Below, one piece after another: positions 2-44,932 of a DNA stretch of 64,000 bases. The notes below the pieces were generated by a model. It was not told where the DNA came from. It did no database searches and saw only the letters and a program-made list of their open reading frames with translations. Every line of letters begins with the position of its first letter. The stretch's first letter is position 1. The DNA comes from Albidovulum sp. bin36 (GTDB lineage: Bacteria > Pseudomonadota > Alphaproteobacteria > Rhodobacterales > Rhodobacteraceae), in contig MPMP01000005.1 in the NCBI GenBank assembly GCA_002238565.1, positions 23,916 through 87,915 on the forward strand. Direction: 5' to 3'. A program made the position numbers and the translations under genes.

Positions 2-448
2 GACACGCTGCAGAAGGGCGACGATTTTTCGGGCTTCCTGGCGAAAGCCGTTCCTTTGCGTCTGCAGCGCAGGGCATTGCGAAGGCTTTGGCTGTCCGAT
101 CCGGTTCTCGCGAATCTCGACGAGCTCGTGGAGTACGGCGAGGATTTCACGGACGCCGCTACGGTTGTCGAAAATCTTCAAACCGCCTACCAGGTCGGAA
201 AGGGCATGCTCGAGCATGTGGAAAAAATGGCCGAGGCGGCGGCGCGGGCGGAGAGCGACGATTCCGCCGCCGAAGCCGCGGGGTCCGAGGCCGGCGAAGG
301 CGATTCTCTAGTGGATGCCGAGCCCGAGGACGAGATCTCGAACGAAACCGCCGAAGCCGCCGGTCCTCCCGAATCGCCCGAGGAGGAACAGGCGAACTCA
401 ACAGTCAAACGCCGCATGCGTTTCAAATTTTCCCGGGAAGGCGCCTGA
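2..448 (+). CDS. DUF3306-like protein of formate dehydrogenase clusters (5' end lies outside the window)
   Basis: The frame is open from base 2 (DTLQKGDDFSGFLAKAVPLRLQRRALRRLWLSDPVL...). It has an acidic low-complexity tail. It sits directly upstream of a TorD-like chaperone and the fdh genes, the usual DUF3305/DUF3306 context. Confidence 0.55.
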   Translation, partial: DTLQKGDDFSGFLAKAVPLRLQRRALRRLWLSDPVLANLDELVEYGEDFTDAATVVENLQTAYQVGKGMLEHVEKMAEAAARAESDDSAAEAAGSEAGEGDSLVDAEPEDEISNETAEAAGPPESPEEEQANSTVKRRMRFKFSREGA

Positions 449-38499: not shown

Positions 38500-41259
38500 T
38501 TATCCTGTCTGCGAATCGACCGCTATAAGCACGCCTGCATCCGATCCACGCCCTTTCAGATAGTTTACAATCTCCCTAGCGGCCGTTGCTGTGTCCTTCC
38601 GGGCCTGCACCCATTCCAACTGCACGGCCCGTTCCAGTGCATTGACCGCATCGCGGGAAAGTTTTCCCTCCGGCGGCAGCGCTTCGGAGTCTAGAAGACG
38701 CACTCTGCAAAGGCCCCCAAGAAGCAGGATCGCGTACCGAAATAAAGTGCGGTTGTAAATCTCATTATTCCATTCACCATCTACGAGTTGGTCCAAAACA
38801 CGTACGCTGAAACTAACCGCATGAACCAAGTTTTCGTGATTTTCCAATACAACCGCCGCTGCCGAATCTCTTCTACTGATAATGTGTGAGAGGCAAGCAA
38901 GCCGCTCAACTCGTTGTCCCGCCTTCTTCTGCCCAAGAATGAGTTGAACTACTCTTCTAATCCGAAGTGAATCGGAAACGGTACGTCCGAGACCATGATA
39001 ACATGCAACTGCCGCCGATGCATCCGTGGCTCCTAGTGGACCAGCCGGTCCAATAGACAAACCCATCGCGGCCTTCTCAACTTCTTCGATAATACGGTCC
39101 TGGATAGAGTCTGGACACCGCACAAAACACCATGTCGCCGGCAGATGTCGCCTGTTTGTCACTCCTATTCCTTCCACTGTGGGCTGCCGAATGAAAGCAT
39201 CCAGATCGGTGGCTAGCGCTTCCAAGACTCTGTTCAGCTTGTGTTCGATTCTTGTCAATTTCTCTTCACCGATCTGATCCTTTCCCGGTAATTGTCCCGA
39301 AGAACTCACTACGTATTTGCGCTGGTTGGGGATTCCAATTCCATTCAAAGAAGTCCTACTTAGCTTGCGGTACAGTCTGTCTCGAACATCTGCTTTGTCT
39401 TCGTAGGAGTGTGCGGACAGAAACGCGTCCAGCGCTACCTCGGTGCTCCGAGGCCCATGCCAAAAGCGGGGATATGCCTCGTACTCCACGAGATCCGGCG
39501 CAAGTCTGAAAGGACATGCCTGGCGCTGATCGCCGTCTCGGAAGAGATCGCTCCACCTGAAACGGAGAGGTGATCGTCGTAGCGGTTCGTAGCTTCTAGA
39601 GGAAACCGTGCAAGTAGCGAACCCTGAGACCGGTCGTTGTTCGGCATAAACCTGCACCTCGTACCTCGTTGGCGGATGCTCCTTCAGCGGTTGGATTTTT
39701 TCGCGTATCTCCTCTCCCTTCTTCAGCCTGAAGTCGAGGCATCGCATCCGTGCTGGTATCTCAAATAGGATCGGCTCCTGTGTTCGATAAGTCTTTCCCG
39801 CTTCGACGATCTCCCCCGCCGGTATTAGCGTAGACCAGTTTCGAGTTCCGTCAGGCTGTCTCGCCCAGAGATCGAGTTGCGGTAGGTGATCCAGATACGG
39901 GGCCTCGCCTCGTTCTAGGCGCCGTGCGGCTTCGAGTGCTCCCCAAGCAGCGCAGGCGGCATCGAGCTTCAAAGTATTTTCCGAGGAAACGCCTTGTTTC
40001 TCCAAGGCCAGCTCCAATGCTCGTGCCATTGTGCAGCCCGCGGGTGAGTACAGCAGCACATATCTGGATTCTTTAGCGGCGTGTACCGCCTCCTCCGGCA
40101 GCGGTTCCTCGTGAAACGGTGATGGCTGCCCGATTGCGATCTTCTTCCAGGTTCCCGTATCGTCTCGTATGGCATTCTGAGCGTCGAAATGCCCTAGGGT
40201 GCTTTCCCCGGAAGCAATGCTCTCGACCAATCTCGTCTGCCGATGGAGAAGTTCCATTGCCTCGTGTCCGCTAACTGCCTGGATCTGCCTTCGGATCTCG
40301 TGAATTCTAGCGGTCCAATCCCCTTTCCATTTCAGCCGCTGACCATACTCCTTTCGTTCTGGGAGCAATTTTCCCTTCCACTCGTGGAGCAAGAGTTGTT
40401 GGGTCTCAACTCCTTTCGTTCCGGCGATTAACACTACGAGGGAAATTGGTTTACTTGAGTTGTCTCGGGCTTGTTGCAGTATCCTTCTTGCTCGACTCGC
40501 AGCGGCAATTTCGTGGTGCTTTGTTCTCTCGTTCAGGATTCCGAGAACGACGGCGACTGGCCGCCAGAGAAGGTCAATGGTGCATCCGCCCAACCTTGTT
40601 CGAGCGAGTTCATCAAGGATTCGCGCCTGCGCGGCTTCGTCTATCGCCGGGACATCGGATACAACAAGCACAGCACGTCGGGCGCTGGGTGCTGTACCCA
40701 TTACCCCGGCCCGTAGCGCTTCGCCCAGAGTAGGCCTGCGAACTGGCTCTAGGTTGTCGCGGGTTGCTGCGTCGGTCCCTGGCTCTCGCTTGTTCCGTGC
40801 TCGATCACTTTCCCCAATATTGTTTGCGGCTAGGAGCAGGGCGGAGTTGCGCTCCGATGTTGAACCCGGACGACGTTCGCCCTTGGCATACGGTGCAGCC
40901 GATTGCGTTAATTCGTCGCCATGTAGATTGGCGTCGCTGCCGCCTTCCGGTATTTCCCATAGGCCACCTTCGATTTCCTCCCAAATTTGGCAAAACTCGA
41001 GACGGCGATCGGGATCGCCCACATGCTCGCCGTATCCGGCTCCGCGACCGTAAGGCGAGCGCTCTGCCTGCGGCCCTGCAATGACATCACCGAGTTGTTC
41101 CGTGTCGTCGATTCGGGCAGCGACGGAACGCCATCCGAACCGGTTGCAGTGCACCTCCTCGGACTCGTCGGGCGCATGCCCGGGCTCCCGCGCGCAAAAA
41201 TCTTGAAGACCGTTCAGATCGAGGCCTGCCAGGGTCTTCGTTCGACGCTCCTTCTTCAT
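38500..41259 (-). CDS. large (about 919 aa) protein with a degenerate Hsp70/actin-fold-like N-terminal region and a helical C-terminal region; fifth gene of the candidate defence operon
   Basis: Start placed at ATG 41259 (ATGA overlap with the upstream stop); ATG 41280 is the alternative. Motifs occur in Hsp70 order: LAGLDLNG, VLVVSDVPAIDEAAQARILDELARTRLGGCTIDLLWRPVAVVLG, LVVLIAGTKGVE, YVLLYSPAGCTMARAL. Coding status is strong; the fold call is by eye only. Confidence 0.6.
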   Translation of the reverse strand: MKKERRTKTLAGLDLNGLQDFCAREPGHAPDESEEVHCNRFGWRSVAARIDDTEQLGDVIAGPQAERSPYGRGAGYGEHVGDPDRRLEFCQIWEEIEGGLWEIPEGGSDANLHGDELTQSAAPYAKGERRPGSTSERNSALLLAANNIGESDRARNKREPGTDAATRDNLEPVRRPTLGEALRAGVMGTAPSARRAVLVVSDVPAIDEAAQARILDELARTRLGGCTIDLLWRPVAVVLGILNERTKHHEIAAASRARRILQQARDNSSKPISLVVLIAGTKGVETQQLLLHEWKGKLLPERKEYGQRLKWKGDWTARIHEIRRQIQAVSGHEAMELLHRQTRLVESIASGESTLGHFDAQNAIRDDTGTWKKIAIGQPSPFHEEPLPEEAVHAAKESRYVLLYSPAGCTMARALELALEKQGVSSENTLKLDAACAAWGALEAARRLERGEAPYLDHLPQLDLWARQPDGTRNWSTLIPAGEIVEAGKTYRTQEPILFEIPARMRCLDFRLKKGEEIREKIQPLKEHPPTRYEVQVYAEQRPVSGFATCTVSSRSYEPLRRSPLRFRWSDLFRDGDQRQACPFRLAPDLVEYEAYPRFWHGPRSTEVALDAFLSAHSYEDKADVRDRLYRKLSRTSLNGIGIPNQRKYVVSSSGQLPGKDQIGEEKLTRIEHKLNRVLEALATDLDAFIRQPTVEGIGVTNRRHLPATWCFVRCPDSIQDRIIEEVEKAAMGLSIGPAGPLGATDASAAVACYHGLGRTVSDSLRIRRVVQLILGQKKAGQRVERLACLSHIISRRDSAAAVVLENHENLVHAVSFSVRVLDQLVDGEWNNEIYNRTLFRYAILLLGGLCRVRLLDSEALPPEGKLSRDAVNALERAVQLEWVQARKDTATAAREIVNYLKGRGSDAGVLIAVDSQTG

Positions 41260-42866
41260 GGTATCGCGTCCTGTAGCCATGCCTCGATGTGTTCTCCGAA
41301 GTGATCCATTGGCTTGGTTAACTCGCTGCCCGGTTCAAAGGCCGCGCGCATGAGCCGTGCGTCTCGTCGTGTCGACTCCGGCTCACTGCCGCTTCTATCG
41401 AACACCGAGCGCAGAGCAACGCCATACACCTTGCCGAGTGACTTCTCCTTACGCTCAATGAGGTCGCACGTACGCTCAAGGCCCGCAAGATCTTCATCCT
41501 CTGTGGCTTTGCGAAAGCTGTGCAGCGCGTAGATTGGCATCCGTCCAAAGGTCCGTCCGTTCCAGGACTTGACGTGAAGGGAGGCGGCTGTTCCCGGCAG
41601 TCGGCCTTGATCGCTGTCCATCATGGGTGAATGCACCTCGATGGTCCACTGATGCCCACCTTTGACCGGGAAAAACACCATTGCGGGCTCATGTAACGCG
41701 ATCCACCTTCCCTCGCGCTGTTCGTTACGTGCTTGGAGTGGCATTTCTGCAAGGGGCGTCATGAGTTGCGTTTGCATCCGACATGCCACCAGAGCAAACA
41801 AGAAGCAGAATTCATCCCAGCTGCGGCTCTGCCAGATCCACACCAAATCTCTTGCCCGGTCGTGCCTTATCAGCGCTTGCCAAGCGGCCCAGACGGTCTG
41901 GTACCGCGCGTCGTGCTGAAGAACGTAGTTGGGTGATACGCCCGGCTGAACGGTCCTCACACCGCGCAGTCGCAAGTCGCGGTCCAAAGTTCGGCATCGC
42001 CGGCGGTAAGCTGCGAGCAATTCGCGTTTCTTCGGATCCCGTACGACGTACTCTCCGACCAACCGCGTGCTCATCTCCGCGACCGTCCGCAGGGTCCGGT
42101 TCTCAAGGGTGTCGAGGTTCTCCTCGCGCACCGGCGCGAGTATTGTCTGCCGGGTGCCGGCGCGCTCCGCAGTATCGCGTCCGGGCTGCTTCAAGAGCCA
42201 GCGGAGGGTCCGATCATCCATCTCCGTCGCAGCGCCGACTGGGACAGTTCGGTGCACTCTGCGCAGCACCTTGCGCGGGCTTGCGGATAGATCGGCCAGC
42301 ACCGGATGGAGCGTTCGGGCGTGCTCGACCAGCACCTCCATCGTTGGCTCGTAATCCTGACCGTACGGATCCAAAAACGCTTCGTCGACCCACTGCCAGA
42401 CTCCATTCGCCGTCTTCTCCATCCATCGCTCAACCGCGTGGATCCGCCCAGAGAGGGTCCAGATTGCCGTTAGCCATCGCTCGTTTGATCGCCCAGCGTC
42501 TTTGATTGCATGCTTGCTTGCGTGTGGTTTTTCGAGAACATCGCGGTGCCATTCGATGCCCCTGAATGATTTACCACGGTTGTCTTCGATGCGTAGCGTA
42601 TGCTTGAGACGGGAGGATATCGGAACTTGATAGATCCGGAAGCCCTCCAAGGCACCGCCCGCCTCTCCAACCATGGCGAGCATGATGCGTTTTCCGGCGC
42701 TTACGTTTTGCGGAGGCGGGCACTTTGACGCCGGCAGGTACTTCCACGCTATGAGGGTATCGGCGTCCGCAGGGGTGGACTGTGGTTTCCAACTCGCCTC
42801 GTTGTAGAGCGCCTCCGCGAGATCCCAAACGCCTGCGAGAGCGAAGGCGTGTGGCTCCAAACTCAT
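41256..42866 (-). CDS. McrC/DUF2357-like partner of the McrB-like ATPase
   Basis: 536 aa. LDTLENRTLRTV resembles the McrC/DUF2357 DTxENR-hhK motif. SWDEFCFLFALV resembles the helix preceding the PD-(D/E)xK core. ATGA overlap with the upstream AAA+ gene. Confidence 0.65.
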   Translation of the reverse strand: MSLEPHAFALAGVWDLAEALYNEASWKPQSTPADADTLIAWKYLPASKCPPPQNVSAGKRIMLAMVGEAGGALEGFRIYQVPISSRLKHTLRIEDNRGKSFRGIEWHRDVLEKPHASKHAIKDAGRSNERWLTAIWTLSGRIHAVERWMEKTANGVWQWVDEAFLDPYGQDYEPTMEVLVEHARTLHPVLADLSASPRKVLRRVHRTVPVGAATEMDDRTLRWLLKQPGRDTAERAGTRQTILAPVREENLDTLENRTLRTVAEMSTRLVGEYVVRDPKKRELLAAYRRRCRTLDRDLRLRGVRTVQPGVSPNYVLQHDARYQTVWAAWQALIRHDRARDLVWIWQSRSWDEFCFLFALVACRMQTQLMTPLAEMPLQARNEQREGRWIALHEPAMVFFPVKGGHQWTIEVHSPMMDSDQGRLPGTAASLHVKSWNGRTFGRMPIYALHSFRKATEDEDLAGLERTCDLIERKEKSLGKVYGVALRSVFDRSGSEPESTRRDARLMRAAFEPGSELTKPMDHFGEHIEAWLQDAIP

Positions 42867-44932
42867 CCGCCGTGTCCCTGCCGGTCAAGCCCACCCCAGG
42901 CGAAGAGGCCCCGCTCTTCGCCTGCGGAGATATCGCGTCGTATCGCTTCCTCTAGATTCTGATCCTGAAGCGTCTCGGTGGTGTACTGCATGAGCTCCTT
43001 CAGCGATTGCTCTGTCGCGGGGTCCGCGAGATCCACGCCACGAAGCTTAGGCAAAACGCGCATTTCGACCTGATCCGCGATCGCGAGCCGCCAATCGCCA
43101 GCATTGGGGTACTGCTGTGCGTAGCGTTCAATTGCCTGCGCCATGCGGTGCCCGAAGCCCCGCTGTATCCGTCCCAAAATCCGGTTCAGATTTTCGATCG
43201 CAGTCTCGATACTCTCGCTATCGACGTGTTGTCCGCAATCGTTGATCCATCGGTCCCATTGCGCGGCATTGAGATAGCCGCTTGCAGGGTCGGTATCATG
43301 CGTGCTGTCTCCACCGAACTCGAGCTTCTCCGGCCGAGTGAAACGCAGAACGTTTGAACGGTCGAGGACCTTGTCTGAGAGGGTCTGGGTGCTCTCGTCT
43401 TCGTTCATCGTGCCCGCGAAGAGGACCCGGTATCCGGCGTAGATCCGTCGTGCAGTACCGTTGCTTTCCGCGGGGATATCGAGTTCAATCTCTGCGTCCG
43501 CACGCCGTGCAGGGTTGCTGTTCTCATTGCGATGAGGGCGCATTTCCAATCGACTCAGGAAGTCTGAGAAGTAATACTCCGTGCGCGCCAGGTTCATCTC
43601 GTCCAGCAACACCAGCGCCATTCGGTTTTGCCACTCATGGGCTATGTCCGGCCAGTTCTCGGAGTCTAGGTGCGCGAGCAGGCGCGCAAGATCTGTAGCC
43701 CGGTACCGCTTGTCGACGAAGTTATAGAATCCCATTAGATCCTGCGGGCTGTCCCATCTCGGTTGCACCGGAACCTGAAGGAAGTGAATCCCCATAGCCG
43801 CCGCATAAGCGCGGGGGAGTTGGCTCTTTCCGGTACCGCTGATTCCCGCTAAAACGGTCATCGGTGATATGTCCGCCACCTTGAGCGCGGTATGGAAGGC
43901 GTAGATTGTGCGTTGTCCGAATGTCAGTCCCGCTTGCCTCAACGATTCTTCTACCGCGCTAAGGGATTCTCTCTCGCTCCTTGCGCCGAGCGGTCTTTTC
44001 CACCCGCTGTTCTTGGCTGCAACAAGACACTGCGGGGGGCGAGTAAGCTCCGCTAGTTTGTCGTCATCACCGTCCTTCCTCGTCGGCTGGAGTTGCGCAC
44101 GCTGTTCTATTAGGTCTTGGAGTTCTGCGTCCAACTTTGCCGTGCGCGCCTCGAGCTCGGACCGGCGTTTCTGAAACTCATTAATCTTGTCGTCCAACTC
44201 TCGAGCTTCCTGGCGAGCGACCGCCGAGGCGGCGGCGACTACAACGAGGTCCGCGCGCAGTTCGCCAAGCCTCTGTTCTGCAGATTTCGCTTCGGCTTCG
44301 GCAACCTCCCGTTGGGCTCGACGCGCCTCGATTTCAGCATCGAGTCGGACGACTTCGCGCTCGCATTCCAGCAGGCGCCCGCGGAGGGAATCCTCTTGTG
44401 CGAGGAGAGTTTCCAGTTCGGCTGCCTCGGTTCGGAGTTTCGAGGTCTTATCCGAAAGAGACTTGTGGCGCTCGGTCAATTCGTCGATTTCGTCAACAAG
44501 GCGGCGAGCCTGAGAAAGCTCTGTTTGAGCATGCTCAAGTTCAGCCATCTTCTCCGCAAGGTTCCGAGTGGCGTCCGCGTGTCGCGCGGTGGCCTCTTCG
44601 GTTTCCCCGCGGACTGCAAGGACTTCCTGACGCTTTTCCTCCAACGTCTTGTGCTCGGCGAGCAATTCCTCTTTTTGACGTGCTAGAGCATCGACATCAG
44701 CCTGCATCCCGGCAATGTTAGCGAGAGCTTCACGTCGCTGCTTGAGGTCGTCGTCGAGATCGACGAGCGTTCCGCGTTTCGTTTCGATTTGACGGTCGAG
44801 TTCTTCGAGCGTGGCCATCGGCCCGCGGACCGTGGCCTGGTGATCCGCGCGAGCCGCAACGAGCACCGTGACGAAGATAAGCGTGGCAAGTCCGAATGCG
44901 GCAATGAGAACTGTGAGAACGAGAGGATCCAT
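42863..44932 (-). CDS. membrane-anchored coiled-coil protein fused to a McrB-like AAA+ (AAA_5) NTPase domain
   Basis: 689 aa. N-terminal hydrophobic helix LVLTVLIAAFGLATLIFVTVLVAA, then about 270 aa of heptad-rich sequence. Then Walker A LAGISGTGKSQL, Walker B LVLLDEMNLARTEYYFSDFLS, and GTMNEDESTQTLSDKVLDRSNVLRF (equivalent to the McrB NTAD...RRF region). Confidence 0.8.
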   Translation of the reverse strand: MDPLVLTVLIAAFGLATLIFVTVLVAARADHQATVRGPMATLEELDRQIETKRGTLVDLDDDLKQRREALANIAGMQADVDALARQKEELLAEHKTLEEKRQEVLAVRGETEEATARHADATRNLAEKMAELEHAQTELSQARRLVDEIDELTERHKSLSDKTSKLRTEAAELETLLAQEDSLRGRLLECEREVVRLDAEIEARRAQREVAEAEAKSAEQRLGELRADLVVVAAASAVARQEARELDDKINEFQKRRSELEARTAKLDAELQDLIEQRAQLQPTRKDGDDDKLAELTRPPQCLVAAKNSGWKRPLGARSERESLSAVEESLRQAGLTFGQRTIYAFHTALKVADISPMTVLAGISGTGKSQLPRAYAAAMGIHFLQVPVQPRWDSPQDLMGFYNFVDKRYRATDLARLLAHLDSENWPDIAHEWQNRMALVLLDEMNLARTEYYFSDFLSRLEMRPHRNENSNPARRADAEIELDIPAESNGTARRIYAGYRVLFAGTMNEDESTQTLSDKVLDRSNVLRFTRPEKLEFGGDSTHDTDPASGYLNAAQWDRWINDCGQHVDSESIETAIENLNRILGRIQRGFGHRMAQAIERYAQQYPNAGDWRLAIADQVEMRVLPKLRGVDLADPATEQSLKELMQYTTETLQDQNLEEAIRRDISAGEERGLFAWGGLDRQGHGG

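Follow-up and report, generated by a model that had tools for sequence, protein, structure and literature searches.

The last gene of a Type III-B CoCoNuT operon, cnuD, encodes an Hsp70-like protein with degenerate ATP-binding loops and an ARM/HEAT-like tail

CoCoNuTs form a large McrBC-derived class that is known almost only from prediction. CnuD, a component of the Type III-B CoCoNuT, was described computationally by Bell, Koonin et al. (eLife 2024; PMC11090510), who published for it the same inference that a first-pass annotation of the DNA studied here had made, namely a pseudo-ATPase scaffold or a substrate- or RNA-binding module. In that description, coiled-coil segments are usual in CnuD, though not invariable, and the Type III-B CnuC carries an N-terminal immunoglobulin-like beta-sandwich (PMC11090510). 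CoCoNuT experiments were found in the literature for a Type II-like locus only (preprint 10.64898/2026.04.06.716636), and none for Type III-B or CnuD.

The window, meaning the whole stretch of 64,000 nucleotides that was analysed, contains a five-gene operon in the order cnuH, cnuA, cnuB, cnuC and cnuD, and the features are listed in Table 1. The operon is an intact Type III-B CoCoNuT, an assignment made via the published description (PMC11090510). CnuB has the motifs GISGTGKS (Walker A), LLDEMN (Walker B) and GTMNEDES, which contains N-x-D-E and is of the NxD and not the NxxD form. In CnuC, E410 is invariant and the lysine position of ExK is taken by H, R, Q, I or L in 12 homologues; judged from sequence, its PD-(D/E)xK nuclease domain is probably inactivated. 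The nuclease part of CnuH (MTES_1575/DUF559, residues 955-1049) is fused directly to the helicase, and the ORF list has no additional gene between cnuH and cnuA, i.e. no separate CnuE. No RNA families were found in the window by Rfam. The open reading frame of cnuD, on the minus strand, extends over 38500-41280 (926 aa). Because all homologues begin at the second Met (MKKERRTK) and the ATG at this position (41259-41257) overlaps the cnuC stop codon TGA (41258-41256) as ATGA, the coordinates 38500-41259 given by the first-pass annotation are correct and comprise 919 aa and a stop codon at 38500-38502.

Table 1. Genes of the operon and features of CnuD, in positions of the window.
Feature	Residues	Position (nt)	Strand	Basis
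cnuH: UPF1/DNA2-like SF1 helicase fused to Vsr-like (MTES_1575/DUF559) nuclease, 1051 aa		48107..51262	-	Pfam AAA_11 1.1e-14, AAA_12 5.6e-34, MTES_1575 1.1e-14
cnuA: stand-alone coiled-coil protein, 1067 aa		44932..48135	-	Pfam/PADLOC matches of coiled-coil type only
cnuB: coiled-coil and McrB-like AAA+ GTPase, NxD motif, 689 aa		42863..44932	-	Pfam AAA_5 and coiled-coil-type matches; PADLOC PDC-M26A 4e-45
cnuC: McrC-like, DUF2357 and putatively inactivated PD-(D/E)xK domain, 536 aa		41256..42866	-	Pfam DUF2357, E 1.9e-5 (above cut-off)
cnuD: Hsp70-like NBD/SBD and ARM/HEAT-like protein, 919 aa		38500..41259	-	ORF, start overlap, model, fold matches
NBD, N-terminal part	1-99	40963..41259	-	Family conservation; predicted CnuC contact
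Phosphate-1 equivalent LAGLDLNGLQD	10-20	41200-41232	-	Family conservation
Family signature loop GPQAxxxPxGRGxGYG (also given as GGPQAxxAPHGRGxGWG)	60-81	41017-41082	-	G71 82/82, R72 71/82
Clade-specific disordered insertion in NBD lobe I, 77 aa	100-176	40732..40962	-	pLDDT, family alignment
NBD, remainder	177-452	39904..40731	-	hhalign register, column statistics, VIA alignment
Interdomain linker YLDHLPQL (455-462) and Hsp70-type beta-sandwich SBD	453-575	39535..39903	-	VIA vs DnaK 2-502
Predicted ARM/HEAT-like alpha-solenoid, 323 aa	597-919	38503..39471	-	Domain model pLDDT 94.3; VIA Z 12-14

The Hsp70/actin fold claimed for this protein by the first-pass annotation was put to structure prediction, which had been set as the refuting check, and strong Hsp70 matches were obtained. 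The AlphaFold2 model of CnuD (pLDDT 86.2, pTM 0.77) retrieved only Hsp70s among its top 50 Foldseek matches in the PDB, with DnaK 7krv at E 7e-10. By VIA-align, model residues 6-451 superimpose on residues 2-383 of the HSP72 NBD (Z 22.8, rmsd 3.7, 313 aligned) and residues 8-570 on the NBD and SBD-beta of DnaK (2-502 of 7krv_B; Z 22.4, 425 aligned), and the model resembles the docked DnaK states 7krv/7kru. Other actin-fold families (MreB, ParM, FtsA and sugar kinases) were considered and none ranks near the Hsp70s; the SBD-beta match is Hsp70-specific. In sequence searches, CnuD matched no family in Pfam at E up to 0.1, HSP70 PF00012 included, and none in PADLOC, while the CnuD family profile found no Hsp70 among PDB sequences, its best match being a spurious engineered chalcone isomerase (E 0.035). 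An hhalign comparison of the CnuD family with the DnaK of the host genome itself was not significant (E 0.18) and was used for register only. By Pfam, profile and hhalign, CnuD is not a member of the canonical Hsp70/DnaK sequence family PF00012.

The beta-sandwich SBD, modelled with beta strands across residues 456-568, had been absent from the first-pass annotation, as had the ARM/HEAT identity of the tail and the recognition of an already described family. The linker that precedes the sandwich is conserved in an alignment of 82 CnuD family members (D457 in 80/82, L459 in 82/82).

The Hsp70 motif order proposed from the letters alone holds in the model, which aligns CnuD from residue 8 on with DnaK from residue 2 on. 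The proposed pairing of motifs recurs in the sole hhalign alignment (E 0.18), which sets VLVVSDVPAIDE...LLWRPVAVVLG against VITVPAYFND...INEPTAAALAYG and LVVLIAGTKG against AVYDLGGGTF. A fourth motif, VLLYSPAGCT, forms a strand-loop-helix 47 residues before the NBD end, in the place of the Hsp70 LVGGxTR, a placement made at the level of the fold. As had also been proposed, the nucleotide-binding residues are replaced, and column statistics of the 82 sequences extend this to the entire family. Phosphate-1 has the family form GxDxNGWxD in place of GIDLGTT, with G12 and G17 in 82/82, D14 in 75/82 and D20 in 81/82, and its Mg-binding Asp is retained. The hydrophobic strand with D202 in VSD(202)VP, a Walker B-like element, is kept in 81/82, and in LLW(232)R(233)P the position of the DnaK catalytic E171 is held by R233 (75/82). 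The phosphate-2 loop IAGTKG (aa 278-283) is degenerate: DLGGGT is not conserved in the family and the position of DnaK D194 varies between S, I and V. The GG of the adenosine motif is lost, the sequence being SPAG at aa 405-408 and [TS]-P in the family. The DnaK catalytic residues E171, D194, G196-T199 and GG341-342 are thus not found in CnuD, and the residues of hydrolysis seem to be replaced by other, family-conserved ones. ATP hydrolysis has probably been lost, to judge by the motif substitutions, whose mapping was taken from the fold match and from an hhalign alignment short of significance (E 0.18). CnuD may still bind nucleotide; D14, D20 and D202 are conserved.

Between the first two motifs the first-pass annotation had placed an acidic, disordered segment of about 150 aa. 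Disorder is indeed predicted, pLDDT being below 50 at residues 107-158, but the insertion is 77 aa long and not acidic, since 13 D+E stand against 11 K+R; the remaining spacer is modelled as well-folded lobe I. The insertion is present in 5/82 aligned family members, the median length of the region being 5 aa, and is 53% identical to the relative L011, compared with 79-88% for the flanking NBD.

An all-helical C-terminus, likewise expected from the letters, appears at residues 597-919 in both the full and the domain model, with long helices such as 665-691. Against CNOT9, importin-beta and designed armadillo proteins the domain model scored Z 12-14 across approximately 220-258 residues, and the solenoid is probably ARM/HEAT-like, a match that is generic for helical repeats with Z in the range that such repeats give. 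No Foldseek match of the C-terminal domain reached E ≤0.001, the best being a designed armadillo protein at E 2e-3. The DNA encoding the helical domain is, as the first-pass annotation had observed, AT-richer: its GC is 52.4% and its GC3 49.8%, where the operon has a GC of 59.2% and the window one of 60.4%. The solenoid is also the fastest-diverging part of CnuD. It is 75% identical in amino acids to L009, an allele from Thalassobaculaceae with 86% identity, where the NBD is 95-96% identical, its dS is 0.23 against 0.04-0.16 in the other domains, and in the comparison of close relatives nucleotide identity steps down at the border of the domain. The low-GC tail may be a separately acquired segment; dS and dN both rise there, which is compatible with recombination or with faster evolution.

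Several lines of evidence connect CnuD with CnuC, one of them being the ATGA overlap of their genes. When the CnuD NBD alone was modelled with CnuC, lobe I docked on the dead nuclease domain of CnuC with a score of 0.75, the best of 3 controls scoring 0.00. Of 80 solved complexes 58 attained this mark, as did 2 of 110 mismatched pairs, counts that apply only roughly here because the alignments used were our own. Between runs, 59% or more of the contacts are shared, and the pLDDT of the partner is 73 or higher. The predicted interface comprises CnuD residues 50-80 and CnuC residues 370-408 and 435-437, and 19% of it consists of residues conserved at 80% or more, a share that is 11% in the NBD overall. 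The complex model supports binding of CnuD to CnuC and does not demonstrate it, its score being a model confidence and not a measurement. A natural fusion of CnuC and CnuD was found in the 1360-aa protein P0158, which has DUF2357 at E 7e-9, matches CnuC at residues 187-394 (E 2e-36) and then continues into a full CnuD, residues 519-1358 matching the CnuD profile (hhalign E 1.4e-32). The gene order is the same in L002 (24% identity), L001, L009, L011 and the P0006 contig, and in relatives down to 24% identity the CnuD gene is always last, after cnuC. A search for related loci with the single CnuD protein returned one genome only.

These findings are best explained if CnuD is the stand-alone Hsp70-like subunit of a McrBC-derived, predicted anti-phage Type III-B CoCoNuT, and a role in trigger recognition or as an adaptor, not as an ATP-driven chaperone, is rather likely. 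Lobe I of the NBD would dock via the signature loop on the inactivated nuclease domain of CnuC and thereby tether CnuD to the GTPase motor CnuB. The trigger would be bound by SBD-beta together with the variable solenoid; we lean, as has been suggested in print, to viral or aberrant RNA or ribonucleoprotein. Once the trigger is bound, the helicase-Vsr nuclease CnuH would be free to act. Only tentatively, CnuD could be a sensor whose lobe I loop clamps the dead nuclease of CnuC and whose low-GC solenoid is an exchangeable or diversifying cassette that sets the phage trigger recognised. If true, such a sensor with a specificity-cassette solenoid would turn an Hsp70 with a dead ATPase into a modular immune receptor. 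Relaxed constraint or recombination, and not specificity, could also lie behind the higher divergence of the solenoid.

The SBD-beta of Hsp70 has the binding of extended peptides as its canonical task, and peptides are also common ligands of ARM repeats. It is conceivable, if somewhat unlikely, that SBD-beta and/or the solenoid of CnuD capture an unfolded or new phage protein, e.g. a structural one, and switch on CnuBC and CnuH without the involvement of RNA. The retention of SBD-beta and of the interdomain linker motif would agree with this, as would a solenoid that diverges fastest between close relatives as in an arms race with phage proteins, and the CnuD domains are near neutral in net charge, so that RNA binding is not particularly favoured. 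Sister CoCoNuT types have, however, the RNA-linked domains CSD, YTH, SmpB-like and HEPN, and Type III-A CnuCD fusions often have CSDs (PMC11090510). Several conserved Arg and Lys residues in the SBD (K514 and R519) and the solenoid also speak against a polypeptide trigger, Arg being the residue in 10 of the 77 columns with a conservation of 80% or above, including R759, R852 and R854 of the solenoid.

That CnuD is a passive scaffold, which only stabilises or oligomerises the assembly of CnuBC and CnuH and has no ligand of its own, is improbable. Its degenerate catalytic loops, the large predicted CnuC interface and the frequent use of solenoids as scaffolds would fit such a role, but D14, N16, G17, D20, D202, W232 and R233 are strongly conserved in the former nucleotide cleft, and K514, R519, Q541, P543 and W569 in SBD-beta, which argues for a retained binding function, and dN/dS relative to L011 is 0.13-0.24 across the domains. 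The least probable reading is that CnuD still works as an ATP-driven Hsp70, either as a chaperone or as a remodeller, e.g. one that disassembles phage or host complexes, since the complete NBD-linker-SBD architecture, the likeness to docked DnaK states and the phosphate-1 Mg-binding Asp are set against the missing Pfam HSP70 match, Arg at the E171 position, a phosphate-2 Asp and GGG-T and an adenosine GG that are not conserved in the family, the lack of an SBD-alpha lid and the lack, in a Pfam scan, of a J-domain or GrpE-like partner in the operon.

To the published description the present analysis adds the predicted docking surface of CnuD lobe I on the inactivated CnuC nuclease domain, the natural end-to-end fusion that backs the CnuC-CnuD link, and an ARM/HEAT tail that is the variable and compositionally distinct portion of CnuD, and hence a candidate specificity module. 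The discovery is a modest one, since the literature already contains both the fold assignment and the idea of a pseudo-ATPase.

Compared with the published CnuD of Type III-B/III-C (PMC11090510), the protein has in common a separate gene after cnuC in an alphaproteobacterial host, an Hsp70-like NBD/SBD with HEAT-like helical repeats after it, Walker A-like loops that have degenerated and a conserved hydrophobic-strand-plus-Asp (Walker B-like) element. The operon shares with the published Type III-B a coiled-coil NxD CnuB, a nuclease-dead CnuC, CnuA and CnuH-Vsr, whereas Type III-A has CnuCD as a fusion and the two genes are separate here (PMC11090510). Different from the published CnuD are the lobe I insertion of this clade, absent in 77/82 relatives, and the solenoid, whose composition is distinct (52% GC) and whose divergence is faster than that of the other parts.

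With DnaK/Hsp70 (PF00012), CnuD shares the NBD fold (Z 22.8), the arrangement of NBD, linker and SBD-beta (Z 22.4, DnaK 2-502), the linker motif D-x-[TL]-P and the A-x-G-A of the terminal NBD helix. It differs in its identity of only about 12-14% without a Pfam match, in the change of E171 to Arg, in the loss of the phosphate-2 and adenosine loops, in having a 323-aa ARM/HEAT-like solenoid where Hsp70 has its helical lid, and in its location in a defence operon and not with dnaJ/grpE. The best structural matches also include Ssz1, a non-hydrolysing Hsp70 from the ribosome-associated complex (5mb9_A, Z 22.6; 6sr6_C, Z 22.1). Ssz1 may offer an analogy, in fold and role only, of an Hsp70 acting as non-catalytic partner in a stable complex; it is however eukaryotic, binds ATP, has a J-protein partner and lacks a solenoid tail. 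E. coli McrBC (Type IV) has in common the AAA+ GTPase core of CnuB and, with CnuC, the DUF2357 N-terminal domain and the PD-(D/E)xK-like fold. Relative to E. coli McrBC, CnuB has NxD and not NxxD and a coiled coil in place of the DNA-binding N-domain, CnuC has lost the nuclease lysine, and the three subunits CnuA, CnuD and CnuH-Vsr are extra.

The last gene of the operon cnuH-cnuA-cnuB-cnuC-cnuD lies in a 926-codon open frame (minus strand, 38500-41280) whose second methionine, opening the peptide MKKERRTK, is the start in all full-length CnuD homologues, and the corresponding ATG (41259-41257) runs into the stop codon TGA (41258-41256) of the gene before it, giving ATGA. The cnuD gene is thus 38500-41259, as the first-pass annotation had placed it, and encodes 919 aa, numbered here from the MKKERRTK methionine; the ATGA overlap makes translational coupling to the preceding gene probable. 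CnuD had no match in Pfam or PADLOC scans. Its AlphaFold2 model, from an 82-sequence alignment, had a mean pLDDT of 86.2 and a pTM of 0.77. The top 50 Foldseek matches in the PDB were all Hsp70s (best DnaK matches, E 1e-10 to 1e-9), and in VIA-align residues 6-451 aligned with the nucleotide-binding domain (NBD) of human HSP72 (Z 22.8, rmsd 3.7, 313 residues) and residues 8-570 with DnaK 2-502, comprising the NBD and the beta-sandwich substrate-binding domain (SBD; Z 22.4, 425 residues), which supports the initial Hsp70-like reading. The C-terminal 335 residues, modelled separately, reached a pLDDT of 94.3 and resembled ARM/HEAT solenoids at Z 12-14 (CNOT9 4cru_B, importin-beta 1qgk_A, designed armadillo proteins), with a best Foldseek E of only 2e-3; a match of this level is generic for helical repeats, yet it fits 'HEAT-like repeats'. 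The acidic, disordered spacer of about 150 aa described earlier between the first two motifs is mainly folded lobe I: it does hold a true insertion with low confidence (pLDDT <50 at 107-158), but this is 77 aa long, is not acidic (13 D+E against 11 K+R) and was found in only 5 of 82 aligned family sequences.

Domains of CnuD and features of the surrounding operon (window positions)
Feature	Extent	Position	Assignment or basis
NBD	aa 7-452, insertion at 100-176		AlphaFold2 model
SBD-beta	aa 453-575		AlphaFold2 model
Linker	aa 576-596		AlphaFold2 model
Solenoid	aa 597-919		AlphaFold2 model
cnuH	1051 aa	48107-51262, upstream, same strand	SF1 helicase (AAA_11/AAA_12), C-terminal Vsr-like MTES_1575/DUF559 nuclease; PADLOC MkoA 5e-55
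cnuA	1067 aa	upstream, same strand	Coiled-coil-type matches only
cnuB	689 aa	42863-44932, upstream, same strand	Coiled coil and AAA_5 McrB-like domain; PADLOC PDC-M26A 4e-45
CnuB N-terminal helix	aa 4-27	44852-44923, minus	Hydrophobic, transmembrane-like, preceding the coiled coil: LVLTVLIAAFGLATLIFVTVLVAA
cnuC	536 aa	upstream, same strand	DUF2357
Downstream ORF	208 aa	37355-37981, minus	Tn5 transposase dimerisation domain only (PF02281, E 1e-6)

Motif conservation was read from column statistics over 82 sequences. At the position of Hsp70's GIDLGTT, phosphate-1 is G-x-D-x-N-G-W-x-D, with G12 and G17 present in 82/82, D20 in 81/82 and D14 in 75/82, and residues 60-81 form the glycine-rich signature GGPQAxxAPHGRGxGWGxIG. 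D202, closing a hydrophobic strand, is kept in 81/82. IINEPT is replaced by LLW(232)R(233)P, which puts an arginine (75/82) at the position of the catalytic E171 of DnaK; the DLGGGT loop is not conserved in the family, with S/I/V/T/L at the D194 position and only G283 kept, and the GG of the adenosine motif has become [TS]-P. The NBD end, A438-x-G440-A441...A444, resembles Hsp70 AxGAAxQA, and the linker Y455-[FL]-D457-x-L459-P resembles LLDVTP. Among the motif pairs first proposed, the second and third were reproduced by the sole hhalign alignment of the family with the DnaK of the same genome, which is itself not significant (E 0.18). The exchange of the hydrolysis machinery for other, conserved residues argues for a binding function that was probably retained without canonical ATP turnover.

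A word-indexed search gave 10 relatives of CnuD; when 1.84 billion cluster representatives were searched exhaustively, 232 clusters passed E <=0.001 and 27 of them E <=1e-30, mostly of about 800 aa. The family profile matched 3/400 sampled other genomes of the same class and 0/3 genomes of the same taxonomic family; by these counts the family is real, rare and patchily distributed. Clusters P0008, P0009 and P0010 (566-580 aa, 50-56% identical to CnuD) stop just past SBD-beta, with no ARM/HEAT solenoid, which may mean that tail-less forms occur naturally or that the genes were broken at this domain border; P0008 represents 15 sequences from 4 contigs.

The four genes upstream of cnuD overlap at their ends. 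CnuB carries Walker A GISGTGKS, Walker B LLDEMN and GTMNEDES, an N-x-D-E; in 12 CnuC homologues E410 is invariant and the ExK lysine is H/R/Q/I/L. The gene order recurs in the Thalassobaculaceae locus L009 (86% identity), in L011 (75%), on the P0006 contig and in L001 and L002, the last of these keeping it at a CnuD identity as low as 24%. The neighbourhoods of these loci contain integrases, transposases and toxin-antitoxin genes, and the ORF immediately downstream of cnuD is an IS remnant at the island edge. In L010 (738-4167; CnuD 92% identical), which shares Ricin-type lectin, ABC-F and CbiX neighbours with the window locus, a DDE transposase insertion splits cnuC and leaves cnuD intact. 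In L008 (3949-12739; P0007, CnuD 50% identical) cnuC and cnuD alone are left, the upstream three genes being absent, and the pair adjoins a Mu/IS21-like transposase pair (rve + AAA_22). The N-terminal helix of CnuB suggests that the GTPase motor may be membrane-anchored.

CnuC and CnuD are linked further by P0158 (1360 aa), a DUF2357-containing protein from the representative search, in which residues 187-394 match CnuC 173-379 (E 2e-36) and 519-1358 the entire CnuD profile (E 1.4e-32); its sequence identifies it as a naturally occurring protein in which a CnuC-like N-terminus is fused to a complete CnuD. Modelled as a complex, CnuC and the CnuD NBD (residues 1-452) scored 0.75 (three runs 0.78, 0.66 and 0.75), the best of three controls scoring 0.00; this mark was attained by 58/80 solved complexes and 2/110 mismatched pairs, counts that apply only roughly here, since alignments of our own making were supplied to the model. 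The runs share at least 59% of contacts, with partner pLDDT at least 73. No complex of this kind is known to have been solved, so the score is unlikely to reproduce an existing structure, and the model supports a predicted binding of CnuC to the NBD. On the CnuC side the modelled interface uses residues 370-408 and 435-437, which belong to the dead nuclease-like domain; on the CnuD side it uses 359-372 and the signature loop at 50-80. Residues at least 80% conserved make up 19% of the interface versus 11% of the whole NBD, about 2-fold.

The AT-richness attributed earlier to the DNA of the helical C-terminus was borne out: solenoid GC is 52.4% (GC3 49.8%) against 59.2% in the operon and 60.4% in the window, and the solenoid is also the lowest-GC domain in L009, L010, L011 and L001. 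It is the most divergent part of CnuD, with 75% identity versus 95-96% for the NBD against L009 and 85% versus 96-98% against L010. Both dN (0.143) and dS (0.226) are raised there against L009, and nucleotide identity drops stepwise at the SBD/solenoid border, from 0.95-0.99 to 0.82-0.89. Taken over whole genes against L009, no globular component is less conserved than CnuD, at 85.7% identity; CnuH, CnuB and CnuC reach 92.8-94.5%.

Alongside the established fold, motif replacement, operon membership and fusion, CnuD may be an ATPase-dead adaptor or sensor seated on CnuC, and hence on the CnuB motor, whose SBD-beta and solenoid would bind a trigger. We lean towards RNA or a ribonucleoprotein, following the published view, to which Arg/Lys residues conserved in the SBD and solenoid (82 sequences) lend weak support. 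Nearly as probable is a polypeptide ligand, which would fit what SBD-beta and ARM repeats canonically do as well as the fast evolution of the tail. An RNA-directed adaptor and a polypeptide sensor are both favoured over a pure scaffold or an active chaperone. Two features deserve testing, the variable tail and the predicted contact between CnuC and CnuD.

Bell, Koonin and colleagues (eLife 2024, PMC11090510) defined CoCoNuTs as relatives of McrBC in which an NxD GTPase is fused to a coiled coil. Type III-B, found mainly in Alphaproteobacteria, has a CnuH helicase that continues directly into a Vsr-like nuclease; CnuA stands alone as a coiled-coil protein and carries no further domain, CnuB is accompanied by a nuclease-dead CnuC, and CnuD, likewise encoded on its own, combines an Hsp70-like NBD/SBD with HEAT-like repeats and has degenerate Walker A-like but usually retained Walker B-like motifs (PMC11090510). 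All testable features were found in the window operon, whose nearest genome is an alphaproteobacterial Thalassobaculaceae MAG, and the protein is therefore the CnuD of a Type III-B CoCoNuT. From its PADLOC matches, automatic defence annotation would instead name the operon as Mokosh or PDC-M26 fragments. In the authors' proposal, CnuD would bind ATP/ADP but hydrolyse little of it, and would direct the system to RNA (PMC11090510); the first-pass suggestion of a pseudo-ATPase scaffold or substrate- or RNA-binding module agrees with this and is supported by the present analysis. The literature search found no experiment on a Type III CoCoNuT; for a Type II-like one, a 2026 preprint (10.64898/2026.04.06.716636) reports that Pseudomonas is protected against RNA phages and a single DNA phage, and that type, unlike the window operon, lacks CnuD. 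CnuD here belongs to the family described computationally in 2024, to which the natural fusion, the CnuC-CnuD NBD complex model and the variable low-GC solenoid are added.
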